A DNA stretch of 59,160 bases, counting the filler, from Dirinaria sp. TL-2023a (lineage: Eukaryota): the NCBI GenBank assembly GCA_051941275.1. It is 8 parts of 8 records of this genome, joined end to end, with 100 filler letters (N's around TTAATTAATTAA, not from the genome) between each part and the next. Parts side by side here need not be neighbours in the genome. Positions count along the whole stretch, not along the records: positions 44,478 to 51,770 come from JAVEBF010001328.1; 7 more parts are not named here. One strand, 5' to 3'. Both the position numbers and the translations under genes were made by a program. This document shows, in pieces, positions 7,346-51,870 of this stretch; position 1 is the first letter of the stretch, and the number at the start of each line of letters is the position of its first letter. The notes under the pieces were generated by a model. The model worked only from the letters and a program-made list of their open reading frames with translations, did not search any database and was not told where the DNA came from.

Positions 7346-7445
7346 NNNNNNNNNNNNNNNNNNNNNNNNNNNNNNNNNNNNNNNNNNNNTTAATTAATTA
7401 ANNNNNNNNNNNNNNNNNNNNNNNNNNNNNNNNNNNNNNNNNNNN
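7346..7445. other. Artificial contig linker (N44-TTAATTAATTAA-N44)
   Basis: Identical 100-nt spacer with stops in all six frames; occurs 7 times. Confidence 0.99.
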
Positions 7446-8103: not shown

Positions 8104-9100
8104 TTAGCTTCGACTCCAGCTCTTGAAGTATGGCAGCAAGTACAAGGATGACATCCAGATATTCCACAATCTCCATGTTGTTTTATCGTCTTTGATTGTC
8201 CGCTTCGCGACTACTCGCCAAACCACCACCGCTCCCAGGGGCACAGCCGCTGAATATCCCCAAGGGTCCATTTCCCAAAAGGTTGGAAGAAGAAACGAAG
8301 CAGCAGTCATAGTCGTCGCTATTGTCCATCTAGCCGCCCCGTCGCCTATCACTAAAGGCACACTGTTACGCCCTCTCATGCGGTCTCCCTCCTGGTCAGG
8401 TATATCCTGCATGTGGACCGTTAGGAACACGGCCACGCCAATGGCGGCTAGCCAATTCCAGGCCACAGTATTGAGGGAGCCACCACCCATCGCAACCATT
8501 GTAGCGCCAGTAGCGAAACCCAGGTATAATCCTGCGTTAAGCATATTTCTAACAATACAGCTACGATCCGCGCCCCCAAGATTGTTATACAAAATACCGA
8601 GAAAGAACAGTATCAAGGAAGCTGGTAATGCGTGAAGCCACCAGCTGAAGGCGAAGGCTATCAAGTACGCGGCAACCATGATCCGCACTGCTGCACGGTG
8701 GGAGATTCTACCTGATGGCATGGGTCGCCAGGCTTTATTGACTTTATCTTCGAGCACCGCATCTGGCTGGCGCTGGTTGTTGATGTTGAAGGGTAGCAGA
8801 TTGATCCAGGCCCACAAAAAAACCAGTGGTATCCGTGCAAGGGTTTCGCACAACGGGAACCCCTGATTGCTGGACAGAATATCACCTGAGAGTGCGTTGA
8901 AAATTCCCAGGACGGTCTTGGGGACCACTATGGTCTTAAAGTCGCTTGCTGTGAAGAGAAACATAGTATACAAGTGCATCCGTAATTTACTTTGAGCTGA
9001 TTCGAATGTCAGATCTGCTGTCTAATAGTTTGTCAGTCCACCACTCTCCTAGGAGGGAAAGTGCAGGTTCACAAACTTCGCTTGGAGTCATCTTTAGCAT
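8104..9100 (-). CDS. UbiA-superfamily membrane prenyltransferase / Fma-TC-like membrane-bound terpene cyclase
   Basis: Multi-TM protein with NNQRQPDAVLEDKVNKAWRPMPSGRI and QDIPDQEGDRMRGRNSVPL motifs; probable short first exon (MLKMTPSE, ATG 9100) joined in frame by a GT..CTGAC..TAG intron to ORF 8104-8979. Confidence 0.85.
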
Positions 9101-9664
9101 TTTATTAGATGTTCTTTGCATCCGTGGCTACGTCAACTCTCGATTCTCTGCGTCACAAGCTCGCCTCGTACTTGCAGCAGGGAGACTTGGGGTGCTTCAG
9201 GCCAGGAACATCCACGATTATTTACCCGGGAGATGTACAGTAAAAGTCTCATGGGATGCATGCAAGGTAAGCACGTATATTCGCCACGAAGAAGAAATCA
9301 GCAACGGGAGGGCAATCCGATCTCGAATCCTACAGCCTTAAGGGCTGGGAATGACAAATGCAATATGTCTCCGAGCATCATATGCAGCAAGTTACACCAC
9401 AGCTCAGAGAAACACTAGCATTCCTTTGGGATTCTCCTCTAGTGCGTTGATGAATCCTACATTAGTGGCGAGAAATAAGAAATCTAAATTTCAGCTTGAA
9501 GACTGTTTTGATATCGTTATAGATTTCGGAAATACGGTTTTGGTAACATTTCCGAATCGTGAATTTTTCGCTCCTTTTAAGTTGCAAGTCGGCAAGGCAT
9601 AGATTCCTTTCTTCACTTTCTAAAGGACTGCGTTTGGAAAGTGGTGACAATCATAAAGCCCGAA

Positions 9665-11626
9665 ATGACTCAACTCATTTTTTTCAATAGCTGCATTGGT
9701 ATTGTCTCTCACTTGGCCTTCTACATTCGAGAAGAGCATCACCTTCAAGCAGCGGTTCTGCTGAGACTCTATGCGGTGGTTTACTTCATTATCTGGCTCG
9801 GCTGCATACAATTCAATGGAGAAACACCATATTCTGCCACCATCTCAAGTACAACTGCGGCCCTATCATATTGCTTGGGGCTCTTCGGCAGCATCGTGAT
9901 ATATCGCTTCTTTTTTCATCAGTTGAACAGCTTCCCAGGCCCGACAGGTGCTAAAGTCTCCAAGTTATGGCATCTATGGCAGGTGAGAAGTGCGAAGCAG
10001 TACCTGGTCCTGCACGAATTACATAATAAATATGGTGACTTTGTCCGGACAGGTAAGTCTAGTGCTAAGGGAGGATATAAAAGCAGCTTGTTTAACGTCT
10101 ATACAGGACCCAACGAGATTTGTGTGTTCCAACCGGAAGCCCTGAAGACCATTCATGGTTATAGTTCTAAGTGCACGAAAAGCGCATGGTATGACATGCT
10201 GAAACCTTATACGGCAATGAATACGACAAGAAGTAAACTCGAGCACGATAAGCGACGGCGAGCGTACGAATCTGGTCTCTCTGTTAAAGGTCCGTTATCA
10301 ACTTTAATATCGCGCTTGAAGCTGATATCTTTCAAAGCTGTGCGGGGATACGAGACCAGGGTTCTCCACAACGCGAATGATCTTAGCAGTGCATTTTTGC
10401 AAATAGTTGGGAAGCCAATAAATGTTTCAGTCTGGTTTCAATATTTCGCCTTTGATGTGATGGGTGAGCTTGGCTTTGGAAAAAATTTCAACCAGATTAG
10501 GACAGCAAAGTCACACTTTGAAACCGACTTCCTCCGCAACGGCATGTCCCTTCTTGCTATAGTCACCCCAATGCCTTGGCTCTATCACTTAGGGCGTAGC
10601 TTACCTTGTCTTACACGTCAATGGGACAAACTTCTGTCTTGGTCTGCTCGACAAGCAAAACACAGAGTCGAAGTGAGTCTGACTGATCAGTAATGTGAAC
10701 TTCAACTAATTTTGATGTTAGAAGCCAGCAAAACAACCCGATGTACGGTGGTCGATCCATGTATTAGACGTTGCTAATGTATGGACAGATTATGTCTGGC
10801 ATCATTGAGGACTGGCTGGACCAGGATGAGGCCACGCGAGACGTTCATTCGTTGGGCGGAGACGCTATTGCAATTGTGATTGCCGGCAGGTAAGTTATCA
10901 CGGCTCTACCTCATGGATCCGTTAACAACCTATTTTTTGCCCAGTCAAACGGTTGCAGCCGCTTTGGTCTTTGTCTTTTACCGGCTTGCTAAACACCCGG
11001 CCTGGGCGGACACGCTTCGAAAGGAGATCAGTGAATGCCCTGATTTAGATCCAGTACTTCTCCAGTCATTGAATTATCTAAATGCGTTTATATACGAAAC
11101 TTTGCGGCTCCATCCTCCAGTCCCTTCGGCTGGCTTAAGAGATACGCCGCCAGAAGGAATCATTATCGGTGGCCATCATATACCGGGAGGAACTACGGTT
11201 TTAACCCCTAATTATAGCCTTGGAAGACGTCCGTCTACATTTACAGTCTTGGTGATGTTATTGAAGGCTGATCAAACCGGCAGTGGAAAGTTGCTTTGAA
11301 GATGCGAGCCAATTTCGCCCCGAACGCTGGTGCACTGCTCCTGGCTTAGTCAAGAACAGCACTGGCTTCAGGCCTTTCGGTTTAGGTATATCGCTCGATT
11401 GTCTGATAATATGGAAAACTAATCCAGCGTAGGCCCATACTCCTGTGTAGGGAAGAACCTGGCTTTGCTGGAGATAAGGGCCGTGACAGTGGTCTTGCTA
11501 AAGAAGTACGACATCTCTTTTGCTCCTGGCGAGGACCTCTCTGCAATGTTTGAAGACTTACAAGATGTCTTCACTGCGTCTCCCGGAAAGTGTGAGCTGG
11601 TCTTCAAGCTACGCTCAGAATCGTGA
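9665..11626 (+). CDS. Cytochrome P450 monooxygenase (multi-exon)
   Basis: N-terminal TM segments, FPGP, I-helix AGSQT, ETLR (ExxR), PERW, heme motif PFGL/GPYSCVGKNLA; stop TGA 11624-11626. Confidence 0.93.
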
Positions 11627-14786: not shown

Positions 14787-14886
14787 NNNNNNNNNNNNNN
14801 NNNNNNNNNNNNNNNNNNNNNNNNNNNNNNTTAATTAATTAANNNNNNNNNNNNNNNNNNNNNNNNNNNNNNNNNNNNNNNNNNNN
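14787..14886. other. Artificial contig linker
   Basis: N44-TTAATTAATTAA-N44. Confidence 0.99.
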
Positions 14887-22187: not shown

Positions 22188-22287
22188 NNNNNNNNNNNNN
22201 NNNNNNNNNNNNNNNNNNNNNNNNNNNNNNNTTAATTAATTAANNNNNNNNNNNNNNNNNNNNNNNNNNNNNNNNNNNNNNNNNNNN
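22188..22287. other. Artificial contig linker
   Basis: N44-TTAATTAATTAA-N44. Confidence 0.99.
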
Positions 22288-29584: not shown

Positions 29585-29684
29585 NNNNNNNNNNNNNNNN
29601 NNNNNNNNNNNNNNNNNNNNNNNNNNNNTTAATTAATTAANNNNNNNNNNNNNNNNNNNNNNNNNNNNNNNNNNNNNNNNNNNN
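29585..29684. other. Artificial contig linker
   Basis: N44-TTAATTAATTAA-N44. Confidence 0.99.
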
Positions 29685-36981: not shown

Positions 36982-37081
36982 NNNNNNNNNNNNNNNNNNN
37001 NNNNNNNNNNNNNNNNNNNNNNNNNTTAATTAATTAANNNNNNNNNNNNNNNNNNNNNNNNNNNNNNNNNNNNNNNNNNNN
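36982..37081. other. Artificial contig linker
   Basis: N44-TTAATTAATTAA-N44. Confidence 0.99.
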
Positions 37082-40347: not shown

Positions 40348-41931
40348 TCAGTAACGATTTTTCGGCGGAAACTTACAGCCCTTGGTCACGAAGTATTGGA
40401 CCTCCGCGCTTCCAGTATATTGCTTCCCATTGACAAGCCCACCTGTCGCCTTTCCCAGTGCATTGGTATAACTCCCAATAGGGAACGTCGAGCCCTGCGC
40501 TTGTGTCGTGTCAAAGGCGAATTTGTACTGCTGCCCGTGCTTATCCACGAAATCGATATCGACCCCCTGCGGCGCTAGGAAGGGAAGACCCGTCACGTTC
40601 CGAGAGCCGGTTCGCGTAATGGTGGTCATGTCCTTGGTACGTTGACATAGCCGGTTGCACTCGTTGACCAGCAAACGACCGTGCTTCGCGAGATAGCCAA
40701 TGGTTGCGAAAGCCTTGGGCTCGCCTGGGGGAGCGACTGACCAGAAGGCAATGTCATATGGGCCTACGGTTGTGAAGCTGTAGATGAATCGGCTGTAGGT
40801 TTGCTCGTAAGGCGGCCCGTAGCTGGTTTCGGCTTCAAATCCGCCTTTGAAGTCGAGAATCGTGCCGTTGATGTTGGCTTTTCTAAGATGGGGTTCAGTC
40901 ATATACCACAGCAAGAGGACGCTTGCCAGGAAGAGGTCTAATTACACTTACACCTCAGCTTGACCGAGAGCGAAGTGTGCCCAGTTTGTATTCTTGTACA
41001 TGTCGATCTCAGCCGGGGTAGAGGATTTCGTGATCAACGTCTCAAGGTTCGTCCCCGTACCGGGTCCACAACCCCAAGCTGGAGGTCCGGTAGAGTGCTT
41101 TAATGTCAAAGACCCGGAGGCCTTTTGGGCGGGAGAGTCTACCTTGGCGACGACCGATTCCCAGTTGAAGAAGCCTTCATAGCTGGCCAGACCCCAATTC
41201 CCGGAATAATCCGTTGTCGAGATTGTGTCATTTGGAGCCAGAACATATTGAGAGAATGGAACCCCGGCTTTTCCACCAGATACGACGACAAAATACTCGC
41301 TCGGAGCGAAAGAAGGTCCGAAGAAAGAGCCTAAGCCAGAGTTTTAGCACACGGTACTATTGGTCCAGGGCTGAGCCCAATCTATCCTCCGCCTATTTGA
41401 TAGCGAGGAGCAATGAATGCACTTTGTTCAGCTGCCATCGCTCAAATGTTCAAAAATCGATGTGAGGATGTTGCACGTGAAGGGTAACGCCTGTTTATCA
41501 TGTATCTAGAGGATCTACTGGCGGTGCGCGTTTCCAGAACAAGCATTGTACCAGTAATCTGAACCCTAAGATGTGATTGGAGAGGAGGAAGGTTACAAGA
41601 TCCAGACCGATCTCTTATGCAATTAGACCACTAAAAATTTCGTGCTGGCTTACCGATTTGGAAAGAAAGTTGGAACAGATCGGGAATGCCGTTCGTGAAG
41701 GTGTTTGACTGGGCGGCAAAGAAGTATGTTTGTGTCAGGTTCTGGGGATTGACACCTTGGGCGGCTTGCCGACCGACTGGAGGCTGAGGGATGAATGCTG
41801 ATGCTGCAGAGCCTGCATGGGTTAGACAAGCCTCCTCACGCATTTAGAAGGATCGTGTCCCCACTCAGAGAGGCCGTTAGAGCGACCAGAAAGACGGTTA
41901 TCTTCCTGACGCTAACGGTCGCTGTCGACAT
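40348..41931 (-). CDS. Secreted protein of the CrtC/hydroxyneurosporene synthase-like / fungal Diels-Alderase-like beta-barrel family (divergent), about 4 exons
   Basis: Hand-spliced: signal peptide MSTATVSVRKITVFLVALTASLSSAASA, ..TYFFAAQS..LSFQIGSF.., GSLTL, ANINGTILDFKG, VGPYDIAFW, GYLAKHGRLLVNEC, TGGLVNGKQYTGSA; first donor GTGGGG is weak. Confidence 0.55.
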
Positions 41932-44377: not shown

Positions 44378-44477
44378 NNNNNNNNNNNNNNNNNNNNNNN
44401 NNNNNNNNNNNNNNNNNNNNNTTAATTAATTAANNNNNNNNNNNNNNNNNNNNNNNNNNNNNNNNNNNNNNNNNNNN
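44378..44477. other. Artificial contig linker
   Basis: N44-TTAATTAATTAA-N44. Confidence 0.99.
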
Positions 44478-47309: not shown

Positions 47310-47735
47310 CTCTGTAGTCATAATCACAAAATCGATTACAAAATGTTCAAAATCATAATCTGATTATGGTTTTGCACTCAAAATCAGAAATTGATTTTTC
47401 AAATTATTAGAAATCGATTTTGGATTTGATTTCTGATTTTTGGAATCGAGTAATCAAACGTATTAGTAAGCAGCTTACTAAGCGAGCTAATAAGCAAATT
47501 AGTAAGCATTAGCTTAGTAATACTTCTTTTAACACTGTTGTTCGTTTTTTATGTATTATCACTGGAACGTTCACAAACTTATAAGCTTACTAATAAAATC
47601 AGAAATCAAATCATAAAATTGATTTTAAATTCTGAAAATTATAATCGATTTTGAATATAAGAAATCAGAAATTGATTTTGAAAATTTTCGAAAATCGATT
47701 TTAAAATTGATTTCTGAATATTCGTTACTACAGAG
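47310..47735. mobile_element. Non-autonomous hAT-like element (MITE), 426 bp, AT-rich
   Basis: Terminal inverted repeats CTCTGTAGT / ACTACAGAG; 8-bp direct repeat GCTTACCT at 47302-47309 and 47736-47743; many internal AAAATCGATTTT / AAATCAGAAATTGATTTT motifs. Confidence 0.85.
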
Positions 47736-48227
47736 GCTTACCTAGAGGCAGTTGCACGGTATTCATAGCTTCACTTAGCCATTGTGAATAGTGGACAGTA
47801 CGAAGCGTGATTGATGAGAGAAGTGGTTGAGTGTCCTCTTCTAAAGAAAACGCCACAGCTCACAGCCACAGTATTAAAATACTTCATACTTTTATACCCT
47901 TCTTATTCATGATCATACTTGGGTAGGCGACCGATTTCACTCCTCATATCATACTCATGGACACTATGAGCGAAGGCCAAGACGATACCTTACTACATCC
48001 AGATCGCCGAATGCCCGTAGCCGTAGCAATCGCTATGACTGACATAAGAATGCAGCAAGGCAGACTGGCCGCTCTCAGCCTTGTCCAGGTCATTCCTGAT
48101 AAACCACCTGTCAAGGGCTTAAACCTGAATCGCTATTCTGAACAAGCTTACAATCGTAACGTAGGCTAGTAGTGATCGAGTAGGGATCGCTCTACTACAT
48201 TGAGCGACAGCGCTCCGACGTCTGGTT

Positions 48228-50880
48228 ATGGAGCCACTATCCATCGGGGCATCCGTGGTGGGCTTGTTGGCAGCCGCCGCTAAAGTCTCGAAAACGCTGA
48301 CAACCTTCATCAATCGCACCCACAAAGCGCCAAAACTAGCCGAGAATGTTCTCATCCAGGTCTGTGATATCAGGACAGCTCTCACCCAGCTTCAAACTTT
48401 CATCAATGATACAACGACCGCGAATCCCTCTCGTAAACGCATGCTCATGCTGGATCAAATTGTTGTGACCATGACTCAATGTGTATCGGTCTTCTCGGAT
48501 CTCGAAGCTATTGTCAACTCCTTGAATACCGAGGATCCGAAACTGATCTGGGCTCGAGTGGCTTGGACGAGACAAGAAAGCCAAATTACTACGCTCTTGG
48601 AACGATTGCAGTGGTCCAAAACGTCGTTGAATTTGATGGTCTCCACCTTAACTTGGTGAGTTCGAATGAATTTACTCTGTACGTCGAGTGACTGAAACTC
48701 CCTAGCGATGCAGTGGGTGAAGCTGCTTCTGCGGTCGAGAGTCTATCGGCCCTTGTGCAACAAGTGCTGCAAAGCAACCAAGACTTGGCGTTACGCCTTG
48801 GTAATCTCGAAAGTTCATCTAGGAGCCACATACGGTCCTCATTCACCACACATAGAGGCGAGATTGGCGACGGCGTCTCAACCATCACTCCGGAACCACG
48901 AACGAGCTCCACTGCTGCGGAGAACATTGAACAGCGTAGCTTTGCCTTTGACTTTGACCTTGACTTGTACCAATCATGGGTCTATATTCGTGCAATGCGA
49001 CGCAAATCTCTTGAATCATTGCCGTCAACCGCAGAGAAATCCTTTGTGTGGTCCTGTCTCTCAGATTGGAGTCTTGATCAAGTCACCAACCTCTCAGTAA
49101 TATCGCTCCCCATCACCCGCGACCATGTGTCAAACAAAGACCATTACGCATCCGCAAAACCTCCAACATCCAATTCAAGTACTCCTAGGCCAATGATCAG
49201 ACCTGGACTGGGGCGTGCTCCTAGTGTATATCCCCCTAAGGCGTACTCTCAAGTCTTTCCTACCATCGATACTCCTAAGAAACGCATTGCGCTCTTGGGT
49301 ACGTATCATTCTTAGTTTACATGGTTCAGAATCAATCAATTTTCAAAGAATCGTTAAAGTAAATGTACCACAGAATATAGTTGTGACACTTTTGAATCTA
49401 ACATACTACATGTGCACATGATTGCTAACGCGCTCTGGAGGAACTCGATACTCTGGCAAAACGACGTTCAGCAGACAACTTAACTTTCTACACGGATATG
49501 AATTGTTAGACGAAGAACGTGGGAAGTTTCGTGATGTTATTACGCGCAACGTATTAGAAGCATTTGCATCGATCGAGTGTGGTAAGAGCTTTTCATATAA
49601 CAAAATTATGACGAATTTGCGCTTACAACACGTTGAAACCAGATAACGGGTTGACAGTCGAAGAGGTTCAAGTATATAGATTAGCTGCAATGCAACGAGA
49701 ACAGCTGATAGCTAATTTACAACTTTTCAGAATATCCACACAATCAAAGCGCATACAAGCTTTCTTGAGTCAATCGATCTCGAACAGCCACCGAACCAGG
49801 ATGCAGTAAGGGCTGCTCGAGCGCTAGCTCCTAATCCTTCAATTCGACGGCAAATGCAATTACAGGATGGCACGGGTGTCAACGCCAACATCAAAAGGTT
49901 GAAGACACCTCTCTACAATTATTTCGTTCTGAGACTCACAGAACTTGCAGCTTTTTGAACGATTTCGACACTCTTTCTTCTAGGGGATTCCTGGCTTCAG
50001 ATACGCAGATACTCCGTGCGAGGAAAAGCACGAATCAGATATCGAGCTCGACCGTGAAGTTTGACTCCGTCTATTATCGAATTTTGGATGTTGGCGGAGC
50101 ACGCTCTCAACGTTCCTATTGGCAGGACCATTGTATAGGTGCCGACCTTATCTTATTTACAGTGGCTTTAACAGGATACTGCCAATTCTTACCTGAGAAT
50201 AATGGCGTCGTAAGTTCTCATTCAGCCAAGCCCCTGCTTGCATCGTTGATAAGAAGCAGAGCGATCTAGAAGACTCGATGAACGAATTTCACATGCTGAT
50301 CAACAACTATTCATCGCCGATCATTCTTCTCTTCACGAAGCTTGACCTTCTAGGAGAGCGTCTTCGACACTTCCCATTCTCCCATTATTTTCCAATGTTT
50401 GGAAGTTCTATGCCTGATTGTTTCCCACGAAAACAGCTGGACTGCGTGACAATTTGCGAATTCATGGCAGACGAATTCAGTAAAGCGATGGCGGTCAGAA
50501 ATCCACACCGGTACATCTTTTTTACAAGCACAGTCGAAACGTCTTGCTTCAGAAAGACATTTGAGGACATTTGTGCCGTGGCGCTTTCACGCATCGAAAA
50601 TCAGCTTTCAAGCATCGGATATCATTTTTCAGATGAGCTGCGCCCATATGTTTACCGACAATCGCCGATCGACGCTCTTCAACGACTGAATACACCATGG
50701 CCTAATCTCCGCACTCGACCAGCTGAGAATAAATGGCGCATTTTGTTCGGTGCTTCGTTCAACCAATCCGACAACCTGCAGAGACTACCAGTGGGGTATT
50801 CGGATTTCGCAGCTGGAGGTAGCCCTAGTGACGTCGACACATTGAGTACAAATTACTTTTTTGAGGAGGAACGGGTATAG
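48228..50880 (+). CDS. Fusion of a fungal HeLo-like/PigL-N (STAND N-terminal-type) domain with an atypical heterotrimeric G-protein alpha domain, multi-exon
   Basis: MEPLSIGASVVGLLAAAAKVSKTL...ARVAWTRQESQITTLLERLQWSKTSLNLM; FDFDLDLYQSWVY linker; G1 LLG/TRYSGKTT, G2 ILRARKST, G3 DVGGARSQR, G4 LLFTKLDLL, G5-like FTSTVET. Confidence 0.8.
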
Positions 50881-51770
50881 TTTACTGGCTGTTAGATGAT
50901 GGCGGGATTTTCTGTTTTTATTCTCAGTCGTGGCGACATGGATGATATCCACCTGTTACGGAATGACAACGCGGAATGTCTAGATAACCCTCATCATTGT
51001 TCTAGAAGTTTCAGCAACAACTGATGTTATGTTTTCACTTTCAGAAGAGAAATGTGATTAAGTAAAATCTACATCGAGCATGCCATTATTAAAGATGCCT
51101 ACAAAACGACAATTTCCCAAATCAACATCGAAGCCAACCACAGACACAAATTCTCAGGCCAAACCAGGCCGCTCAAGAGGAGAAAAAAAAAAGCTGCTCA
51201 TCTAGCACCAGTCTATAACCGCGAAGAATCTCACGGTGACTCAAACGTGAATCTCAGCGTAGTTCCTGCTTCAATCATACATACAATCAGGATTGTACAT
51301 GCTCTAAACAGTATTATCTTCTCAATCTCTCTTTCTTTTTTAGATTCCATAATCTTGCACTAACATCAAATCTATAAGAATCTATCAAGACGACATTCAA
51401 CTCGGAATCAGTGAAGCATCCCGCGGGAAGAAATGATTAATATCGAATTATTTCAGTAGAAATATGGATTTAAAAGCAGCTAGTCGCTCCTGCGGCGGAA
51501 ATTGAAATTTCAGTCGAGTTGAGAAGATGATATTTGATCGGATGATTTGTAGATTCTCAAGCCCAATCTCGAAGAGCGCTTCGAAAATACAGGTCACATT
51601 TTCAAAGAAAAATGGTGTATATAATGATAGCTTAACTCGCTTCGACCTTTCTTATATATTGCAGGTAGGAAAAACATCAACAGTGCATTACGTAGACTAC
51701 TAGAGTCTCGATCTCTTTACGTGAAACTTTGTGCTCGGCGTTCAGGCAGGAAAGTTCAATGAAGTTGGAT

Positions 51771-51870
51771 NNNNNNNNNNNNNNNNNNNNNNNNNNNNNN
51801 NNNNNNNNNNNNNNTTAATTAATTAANNNNNNNNNNNNNNNNNNNNNNNNNNNNNNNNNNNNNNNNNNNN
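51771..51870. other. Artificial contig linker
   Basis: N44-TTAATTAATTAA-N44. Confidence 0.99.

Follow-up and report, generated by a model that had tools for sequence, protein, structure and literature searches.

Gene structure at the locus

The window analysed here is a stretch of 59,160 nucleotides of DNA from Dirinaria sp. TL-2023a (assembly GCA_051941275.1), in which parts of eight records are joined end to end. Its subject is a gene on the plus strand at positions 48228–50880. Dirinaria is a lichen-forming genus of the Caliciaceae (Caliciales, Lecanoromycetes). The sequence indicates that the locus is one intact gene of this fungus, encoding a 745-residue protein of four parts: a HeLo-like/PigL_N helical bundle, a conserved motif, a divergent G-protein alpha-subunit (G-alpha) domain and a C-terminal tail.

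Reading of positions 47600–51500, followed by joining of the exons by their coordinates, yielded seven exons with a combined length of 2238 nt and 745 codons in one frame, in which the sole stop is terminal. The six introns measure 50, 142, 61, 59, 53 and 50 nt, and all are of the GT..AG type. The codon for Gly341 is split across 49298 and 49441–49442, and this exon 3 junction is the same in the annotated NCBI product of the locus, P0001 ('MAG: hypothetical protein Q9191_006915 [Dirinaria sp. TL-2023a]', 472 aa). Exons 1–5 of P0001 are identical to those reconstructed here, including the 29-nt exon 4 and the acceptor at 49440. That acceptor had been described as an unusual GAG acceptor in a preliminary description of this DNA; it proves to be a normal AG (49439–49440) with G at −3, and a CTAAC branch-like site precedes it by 11 nt. 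Of the splice signals, the donor of intron 5, GTTGAA at 49898, is the weakest. P0001 reads through 49898–49958 and therefore lacks both switches, G4 and G5 of the G-alpha domain.

Three lines of evidence place exons 6 and 7 in the same gene as exons 1–5. The Pfam G-alpha profile is matched in order and in register, at positions 19–72 (P0001 residues 334–385), 144–227 (exon 6) and 232–330 (exon 7). The full-length homologues P0003 and P0005 give collinear tblastn matches on exons 1, 2, 6 and 7, and the exon 5/6 junction aligns without gaps to P0002, P0003 and P0005. The same evidence bears out the proposal, made in the preliminary description, that one gene joins a PigL_N/HeLo-like N-terminal domain to a G-alpha.

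Table 1. Features of the Dirinaria gene, in window coordinates.
Feature	Position	Strand	Residues and content
Exon 1	48228–48655	+	aa 1–142 and 2 nt of Cys143; start codon, hydrophobic helix MEPLSIGASVVGLLAAAAKV, first part of PigL_N/HeLo-like bundle
Exon 2	48706–49298	+	aa 143–341; end of bundle, low-confidence linker, conserved motif, low-confidence linker to P-loop
Exon 3	49441–49581	+	P-loop G1 GTRYSGKT (through 49463), helix alpha-1, start of helical domain
Exon 4	49643–49671	+	29 nt; helical domain; also in NCBI P0001
Exon 5	49731–49897	+	diverged helical-domain core; donor GTTGAA at 49898 unused in NCBI model
Exon 6	49951–50209	+	switch I Arg477 (50021–50023) and Thr480 (50030–50032); G3/switch II DVGGAR, Ala503 (50099–50101)
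Exon 7	50260–50880	+	G4 TKLD (50335–50346), G5-like FFTSTVETS (50515–50544), helix alpha-5, tail, stop TAG 50878–50880
HeLo-like/PigL_N helical bundle	48228–48838	+	aa 1–187; intron 1 (48656–48705) inside
Conserved post-bundle motif	48950–49162	+	aa 225–295, FAFDFDLDLYQSWVYIRA ... WSCLSDWSLDQVTNLSVISLPI; no Pfam family
C-terminal tail	about 50590–50877	+	~95 aa, after helix alpha-5; no recognised domain

A G-alpha domain without its catalytic glutamine

The G-alpha domain spans residues ~334–650 of the 745-residue protein. In Pfam scans of the exons singly and of P0001, the G-alpha family (PF00503) was matched by exon 6 with 64.5 bits (cut-off 48.8), by exon 7 with 48.2 bits and by exon 3, which covers profile positions 32–72, with 26.4 bits. 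The domain aligns end to end with those of P0003, P0005 and P0002, which themselves score 124–141 bits.

The G1 motif, LLGTRYSGKTT, occupies residues 339–349. In switch I, the segment ILRARKST aligns with VLRTRVKT of Gi-alpha-3, such that Arg178 and Thr181 are kept as Arg477 and Thr480. At G3, in contrast, DVGGARSQR aligns with DVGGQRSER, and the catalytic residue, Gln204 in Gi-alpha-1, is replaced by Ala503. The G4 motif is TKLD instead of NKxD, and G5 is represented by the diverged segment FFTSTVETS. As the G-alpha domain is internal, it has no N-terminal Met-Gly lipidation start. The residue alignment to Gi-alpha-3 and a table of motifs thus agree with what had been read from the DNA beforehand, namely the loss of the glutamine with retention of the switch-I arginine and threonine, the presence of GTRYSGKT and TKLD, and the absence of an MG myristoylation start.

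TKLD is also the G4 motif of Rac1, and by analogy its presence here would not necessarily be a defect for guanine binding. With the P-loop, the switch-I Arg and Thr, DxxG and [NT]KxD all kept in the sequence, the domain can probably still bind guanine nucleotide. The mutants Gi-alpha-1 Q204L and Gs-alpha Q227L are GTPase-deficient. If GTP is bound, its hydrolysis by the Dirinaria protein would be very slow, because the catalytic glutamine on which canonical G-alpha biochemistry depends has been lost.

A full helical insert had also been claimed, and this claim holds in part. The 123 residues between G1 and switch I are of a length that fits a helical domain, and AlphaFold2 (AF2) predicts helices at residues 348–359, 364–388 and 393–411 of this segment, with block means of about 57–82. 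Exon 5 alone, however, matches no Pfam family at E ≤ 1, so the core of the helical domain appears to be very diverged; a full helical domain was modelled only in the orthologue P0162. At the other end, the Pfam G-alpha match begins at profile position 19, after linker residues 304–335 with a predicted local distance difference test score (pLDDT) below 50, and the alpha-N helix that binds G-beta is therefore missing.

The N-terminal module

Homologues of the N-terminal module (N-module; residues 1 to ~295) were sought with HMMER among 1.84 billion representatives, which returned 1531 matches at E ≤ 1e-3, 83 of them at E ≤ 1e-30. Counts of Pfam families and partner domains given below refer to the best 150 of these 1531 matches. 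Most of the 150 cover the query from residue 1 to ~295, so conservation extends beyond the limits of the Pfam domain. PigL_N (PF17111) was matched at E ≤ 1e-4 by 75 of the 150 and above its cut-off by 48 (our own count), among them the G-alpha fusions P0009, P0010, P0023, P0085, P0120 and P0129. Precomputed annotation of P0001 likewise includes PF17111. In the ESM Atlas, residues 1–300 retrieved Ascomycota clusters labelled PigL_N, with a best score of 0.97 and PF17111 on 39% of members; some of these clusters are also labelled SesA or Ses_B. A custom N-module hidden Markov model (HMM) was matched by exon 1, which equals P0001 residues 1–142, with 191.6 bits and by exon 2 with 138.9 bits (model positions 143–297), whereas exon 2 matched no Pfam family at E ≤ 1. 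By the same custom HMM, the window holds a single N-module copy.

An AF2 model built on a 107-sequence alignment predicts a confident helical bundle, with block means of 83–98 over residues 11–180 and helices at residues 6–30, 36–60, 75–98, 106–142 and 146–187. The first helix, MEPLSIGASVVGLLAAAAKV, contains a 19-residue stretch starting at residue 3 whose hydropathy of 1.52 is among the three highest in the protein. Beyond the bundle, residues 225–295 form a conserved motif with the consensus F.FE.DL..SRVY.R ... WS.LSGLSL..IS.ISV.ALPI, in which Phe226, Leu230, Ser233, Tyr236, Ser247, Ser265 and Ser270 are near-invariant across the 107 sequences. Residues 261–290 of this motif have AF2 block means of 75–89. 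The motif sits in the position of the brace in MLKL and of the prion-forming region in HET-S.

The bundle was compared with known structures by means of the VIA structural aligner in two runs, one over 48,161 representative chains and the other over the top 992 from Foldseek. VIA scores of Z < ~13 are common among helical bundles and may reflect a shared arrangement only. Scores in this range were obtained for MLKL entries 4btf (Z 9.5, root-mean-square deviation (rmsd) 2.7, 100 aa), 6zvo (Z 9.1, 115 of 145 aa), 6ux8 (Z 8.9) and 6d74 (Z 8.7), for the plant death-signalling bundles NRG1.1 CC-R (Z 8.6), NRC2 CC (Z 8.2), Rx CC (Z 7.8) and MLA13 CC (Z 7.6), and for CAMP factor (Z 8.3). HET-s HeLo was absent among the VIA rows listed for both searches, which is no sign of a different fold.

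According to the available text of PMC9815663 and PMC10197012, PF17111 is a HeLo-like, MLKL-related pore-forming domain that acts via an N-terminal helix with transmembrane propensity, and domains of this family cap fungal NLRs. The MLKL fold matches are consistent with this published view and do not prove it. The suggested relationship of the N-terminal domain to HeLo cell-death domains draws support from this literature together with the MLKL and plant CC matches, all of which have Z < 13.

Conservation of the fusion in lichen fungi

G-alpha is fused to the N-module in 13 of the 150 nearest representatives; nine of these exceed the Pfam cut-off and four are truncated models. The latter, P0004, P0009, P0036 and P0045, have G-alpha matches of 23–43 bits and look like truncated models of full fusions. 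When the G-alpha region of P0015 served as query, the 19 proteins retrieved were all fusion proteins and all from Teloschistales, with G-alpha in 19/19 and PF17111 in 17/19. The genera represented are Polycauliona, Squamulea, Flavoplaca, Gyalolechia, Gallowayella, Xanthomendoza, Haloplaca, Variospora, Wetmoreana, Caloplaca, Letrouitia and Teloschistes. All named G-alpha fusions come from Caliciales (Dirinaria, Physcia) or Teloschistales, and sequence comparison identifies the fusion as a conserved family in these two orders. In JGI metagenomes, a search for related DNA loci gave 157 pattern matches, none of which was confirmed.

Motifs were tabulated for 26 G-alpha fusions. DVGG or DIGG is present at G3 in 20 of them, and the next residue is Ser, Thr or Ala in all 20 and Gln in none. 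Among the other six, P0002, P0003 and P0005 are degenerate, P0085 has SFSGR, and the alignment is gapped for P0174 and for the G1 of P0023. The Teloschistales clade has the G1 motif G[IV]S[NS][AS]GKST and keeps Thr181; at G3, DVGG/DIGG or DVSG precedes a Ser or Thr, and Gln does not occur there. Switch I is aligned in 20 Teloschistales rows, of which 19 have His or Tyr at the position of Arg178; G4 is aligned in 20 rows too, and all of these keep NKAD. Correspondingly, residues 326–624 of P0162 align to residues 33–343 of Go-alpha with LCAHIMT in place of LRTRVKT and DVGGTR in place of DVGGQR. The AF2 model of P0162 matches solved G-alpha structures with target template-modelling (TM) scores of 0.81–0.85 over about 320 columns.

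Most Teloschistales orthologues end in a conserved sequence of canonical length, ...VQEKIIHTTLKY. The C-terminus of G-alpha contacts receptors. The extreme C-terminus ...FQNAWRQVQEKIIHTTLKY of P0015, P0160–P0169 and others is near-invariant among Teloschistales genera, in the very proteins that have replaced the Gln and Arg, which points to selection on the end of helix alpha-5 that meets receptors or partners.

The Caliciales branch, which comprises the window protein, P0002 from Physcia, P0003 and P0005, is more derived. G4 is T[KR]LD in all four members; only the window protein keeps the switch-I Arg and Thr together with DVGG, whereas switch I and switch II are degenerate in the other three. 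On an N-module tree (124 rows, 314 columns, quick IQ-TREE method), the window protein groups with P0003 and P0005, with a Shimodaira–Hasegawa-like approximate likelihood ratio test (SH-aLRT) support of 95. A split with support of 98 unites all 26 G-alpha rows with nine rows that have no recognised partner. The G-alpha label requires three changes on this tree, compared with a mean of 24.0 for shuffled labels, and the fusion may have arisen once or twice.

A wider family with signalling-derived partners

Comparison of N-module sequences identifies the window gene as one branch of a wider Pezizomycotina family, in which the module is wired to G-protein and Rho/Ras/Cdc42 parts that are often dead. 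Besides the 13 G-alpha fusions, the 150 nearest representatives include fusions to Cdc24-type CH/RhoGEF/PH_10 domains (15), Ras family domains (eight, one of which also has ankyrin repeats), RhoGAP (seven), CRIB/PBD (four, one also with a beta-lactamase fold), LIM (two), ubiquitin (two), Spa2 SHD (one), SH3 (one) and TPR (one). G-alpha, Ras, RhoGAP, Cdc24-like or CRIB domains together occur on 47 of the 150; NACHT or NB-ARC occurs on none. Fusions were found in Leotiomycetes, Sordariomycetes, Dothideomycetes, Geoglossomycetes and Lecanoromycetes. Partner labels require 23 changes on the N-module tree, compared with a shuffled mean of 58.2, and a value this low was matched in 0 of 200 shuffles. 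As partner type tracks the N-module tree in this way, the fusions represent stable gene families and not chimeric gene models.

Loss of catalytic or lipidation features extends to the other partners. The Arg finger is missing, as judged by eye, in six of the seven RhoGAP fusions (P0016, P0022, P0038, P0043, P0099, P0135 and P0140), and alignment confirmed its loss in P0043 (IFTLN, compared with IFRRS in p50RhoGAP). Among the eight Ras fusions (P0037, P0056, P0068, P0089, P0106, P0107, P0109 and P0134), DT[AT]GQE is kept in three and a CaaX C-terminus in none. In P0089, VTSGW takes the place of DTAGQ of R-Ras2, and the equivalents of Asp57 and Gln61 are absent. Within this family, G-alpha has the look of a sensor or targeting module that derives from signalling proteins and is interchangeable with several others, a logic nearer to that of the MLKL pseudokinase than to that of a NOD.

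Genomic surroundings

No NLR was found among the neighbourhood open reading frames (ORFs) tested near the window gene. These ORFs encode an EH-domain protein, UbiA, a P450, a primase small subunit, an Rrp6-like protein, a GNAT protein, PIG-U, Pescadillo and an alpha/beta hydrolase. The UbiA prenyltransferase and P450 ORF fragments lie at 8104–10693 of the window, and an AsqO_C-like ORF lies on the minus strand at 40348–41343; these may be secondary-metabolism genes amid housekeeping genes. A check for tandem repeats around the window gene gave nothing notable. The window also contains paired 44-base N runs every ~7.4 kb (616 N in total), at 7346–7445, 14787–14886, 22188–22287, 29585–29684, 36982–37081, 44378–44477 and 51771–51870, which look like masking or record joins and not like biology. 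Pieces of this length agree with the 7293-base longest contig recorded for P0001.

Proposed mechanism

The reading preferred here, to which a probability of about 0.45 is assigned, is that the protein has an MLKL-like design, in which a membrane-acting N-module is combined with a G-alpha that serves as latch and/or docking module. By analogy with MLKL, the N-module would act on membranes as a four-helix bundle, and it would be checked or directed by a C-terminal pseudo-enzyme. A G-alpha that hydrolyses GTP slowly or not at all could form a conformational latch, could provide a docking module for G-beta-gamma, an RGS protein, a receptor or an effector, or could do both; it would not be a catalytic timer. 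The structure of the gene, its domains and substituted residues, the conservation of the fusion and the architectures of the family are observed; to these the preferred reading adds three predictions, namely that the G-alpha would bind nucleotide without hydrolysing it, that the N-module would act on membranes and that one domain would control the other.

Several points weigh against the MLKL-like design. The literature found reports no measurement of toxicity, membrane binding or GTP binding for any family member. The splicing of the window gene is deduced from sequence and homology, and the NCBI model has no splice at 49898, reading through to a stop at 49958. The PF17111 match of P0001 (26.2 bits, E 6e-6, residues 1–180) lies below the cut-off of 27.2; of the HMMER check advised in the preliminary description, the G-alpha half thus passed its threshold and the PigL_N half fell one bit short. 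The AlphaFold and Foldseek check advised there, applied to the N-module, returned a confident helical bundle, but a Foldseek search of the PDB with that model gave no match at E ≤ 1e-3. In the VIA comparison, IncA (Z 10.9, the top match) and a dynactin p150 segment (Z 10.6) outrank MLKL, whose scores of Z ~9 lie within the aligner's common range for helical bundles. The linker between the domains is of low confidence in the full-length AF2 model, in which no contact between the N-module and G-alpha is seen. Finally, the Caliciales branch may be drifting from nucleotide-dependent function, given that the three closest full relatives of the window protein are degenerate.

A more far-reaching form of the proposal would make the family an undescribed, NLR-independent surveillance or execution system, in which an MLKL-like killing module carries dead copies of signalling hubs as integrated baits or activation-state sensors; this is unlikely. 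The hub copies would be G-alpha in the present case and Ras, RhoGAP, Cdc24, CRIB, Spa2-SHD, LIM or SH3 domains elsewhere. Disturbed or abnormal G-protein or Cdc42/Ras polarity signalling, caused by a microbial effector, an incompatible partner or a symbiont, would then release a membrane-attacking N-terminus, and the G-alpha version might police G-protein signalling in the lichen thallus of Caliciales and Teloschistales. A separate idea, that the G-alpha serves to bait toxins whose targets are the catalytic Gln or Arg, was considered and rejected, as those residues are replaced family-wide.

Alternative explanations

The protein might instead be a lichen-lineage G-alpha paralogue in ordinary signalling, for example symbiosis-related sensing, with the N-module as a mere anchor to membranes or polarity sites; this appears somewhat unlikely. 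The N-module would then replace the lost myristoyl/palmitoyl N-terminus, and loss of the Gln would give either a slow, long-lived 'on' switch or a nucleotide-independent scaffold of the kind seen in plant XLG proteins. An N-module that supplies localisation would fit the loss of CaaX from all eight Ras fusions and the lack of Met-Gly in the G-alpha fusions. The strong conservation of the Teloschistales C-terminus ...VQEKIIHTTLKY, in the receptor-contacting part of G-alpha, also favours ordinary signalling, as do the housekeeping genes around the window gene and the lack of a nearby NLR. The available text of PMC6652019 describes five divergent G-alpha paralogues of MAG C in Cladonia grayi, claims the same for Endocarpon (data not shown) and proposes a role in symbiotic signalling. 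XLG2, in the available text of bioRxiv 10.1101/795088, is a G-alpha without the residues for nucleotide binding and hydrolysis that has kept nucleotide-independent interactions. An anchoring role sits less easily with the family and fold of the N-module, which are HeLo-like/MLKL-type with membrane permeabilisation as the described activity, and with the absence of the alpha-N helix that binds G-beta in canonical G-alpha.

The preliminary description had placed the G-alpha in the role of a NACHT/NB-ARC domain, as nucleotide switch or decoy; in an NLR-like immune protein, such a switch would drive oligomerisation according to nucleotide state. PF17111 does cap fungal NLRs in the published accounts cited above, and the window G-alpha retains its nucleotide-binding motifs. 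This substitution is nevertheless highly unlikely and is not sustained by the family: neither NACHT nor NB-ARC is found among the 150 nearest relatives, and several partners are non-NTPases (the CRIB, LIM, SH3 and Cdc24-type CH/DH/PH fusions counted above). In addition, Pfam scans of exon 7, the tail and the rest of the window protein gave no WD40, ANK or TPR repeat sensor, and P0002, P0003 and P0005 have lost switch I and switch II altogether. To our knowledge, nucleotide-driven oligomerisation of G-alpha is not known. Less probable still is that the window copy is decaying towards a pseudogene or results from a false join of two adjacent genes. The NCBI model that stops after exon 5, the weak intron-5 donor, the helical-domain core without a Pfam match and the degenerate switches of the Caliciales relatives would all accord with decay or misjoining, but the seven exons have consistent phases and 745 codons free of internal stops. 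Furthermore, the collinear full-length homologues, the gapless exon 5/6 junction and the ordered profile coordinates argue for a single gene, and the 26 G-alpha rows share its architecture and form clades on the tree.

Novelty and implications

The PF00503 and PF17111 pair is visible in precomputed annotations, and the fusion architecture is therefore already present in databases. A full-text literature search, which did not cover subscription journals, found no paper joining HeLo-like/PF17111 domains with G-alpha, RhoGAP, Cdc24 or heterotrimeric G proteins. The earlier statement that no functional study of this architecture was known agrees with that search, but it had overlooked the report of divergent lichen G-alphas in PMC6652019, as far as the available text of that report goes.

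Among the executioners of regulated cell death in fungi, HeLo-like/MLKL-type domains are the best understood; the settings in which they have been studied are NLRs and effectors under amyloid control. If the MLKL-like design is correct, a GTPase-dead G-alpha, and in sister branches dead RhoGAPs, Ras-like proteins or Cdc24/CRIB parts, would constitute a third way to control a HeLo-like domain and would tie G-protein and polarity signalling directly to the fungal cell-death machinery. Some at least of the 'unique' lichen G-alpha genes of 2019 would then also have a concrete identity and a hypothesis that can be tested. If the N-module is an anchor only, the family would still provide naturally occurring scaffolds of the pseudo-GTPase and pseudo-GAP type, comparable to the plant XLGs.

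Comparison with known systems

The canonical fungal G-alpha groups I–III (GNA-1/2/3, MAG A/B/C) resemble the window protein in their fold with a helical domain and in the order of G1–G5. Unlike them, the window protein is without a Met-Gly start and an alpha-N helix, has Gln204 replaced by Ala and NKxD by TKLD, and carries an N-terminal extension of 330 aa and a C-terminal tail of ~95 aa. The MAG C-like paralogues of Armaleo et al. (2019; PMC6652019) are likewise extra, divergent lichen G-alphas outside the three standard fungal groups; the available text of that report mentions neither an N-terminal HeLo-like domain nor loss of catalytic residues.

Plant XLG1–3 are similar in that a long N-terminal extension unrelated to G-alpha precedes a divergent G-alpha without normal hydrolysis residues. 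The N-terminus of XLGs is a Cys-rich region with a nuclear localisation signal (NLS). It is unrelated to the N-module, the two architectures are independent in origin, and the window protein, in contrast to XLGs, keeps the P-loop, Thr, DxxG and [NT]KxD. The available text of bioRxiv 10.1101/795088 describes XLG2 as a 'decoy' G-alpha.

With HELL/PF17111 proteins, which include HELLP-type effectors and the N-termini of NLRs, the window protein shares the Pfam family (at a borderline score), the hydrophobic first helix and the Ascomycota ESM Atlas clusters. It differs from them in lacking NACHT/NB-ARC and repeats, no NACHT or NB-ARC Pfam match being found at E ≤ 1 in any exon or in P0001, and in having the additional 70-residue motif and a signalling-protein domain. 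No C-terminal amyloid motif was recognised in the window protein, for which no specific test was made.

MLKL, the executioner of animal necroptosis, consists of a four-helix bundle, brace helices and a pseudokinase. Pfam scans of the window exons and P0001 gave no kinase-family match, and the C-terminal domain of the window protein is a G-alpha instead of a kinase fold; the likeness to MLKL is thus one of design and not of membership. The MLKL executioner domain is the best-covered structural match of the window bundle (Z 9.1–9.5, rmsd 2.7–3.2, 100–115 aa), at a level within the range common to helical bundles. The two proteins are alike in combining an N-terminal helical bundle, a conserved connecting segment and a C-terminal enzyme fold without catalysis.

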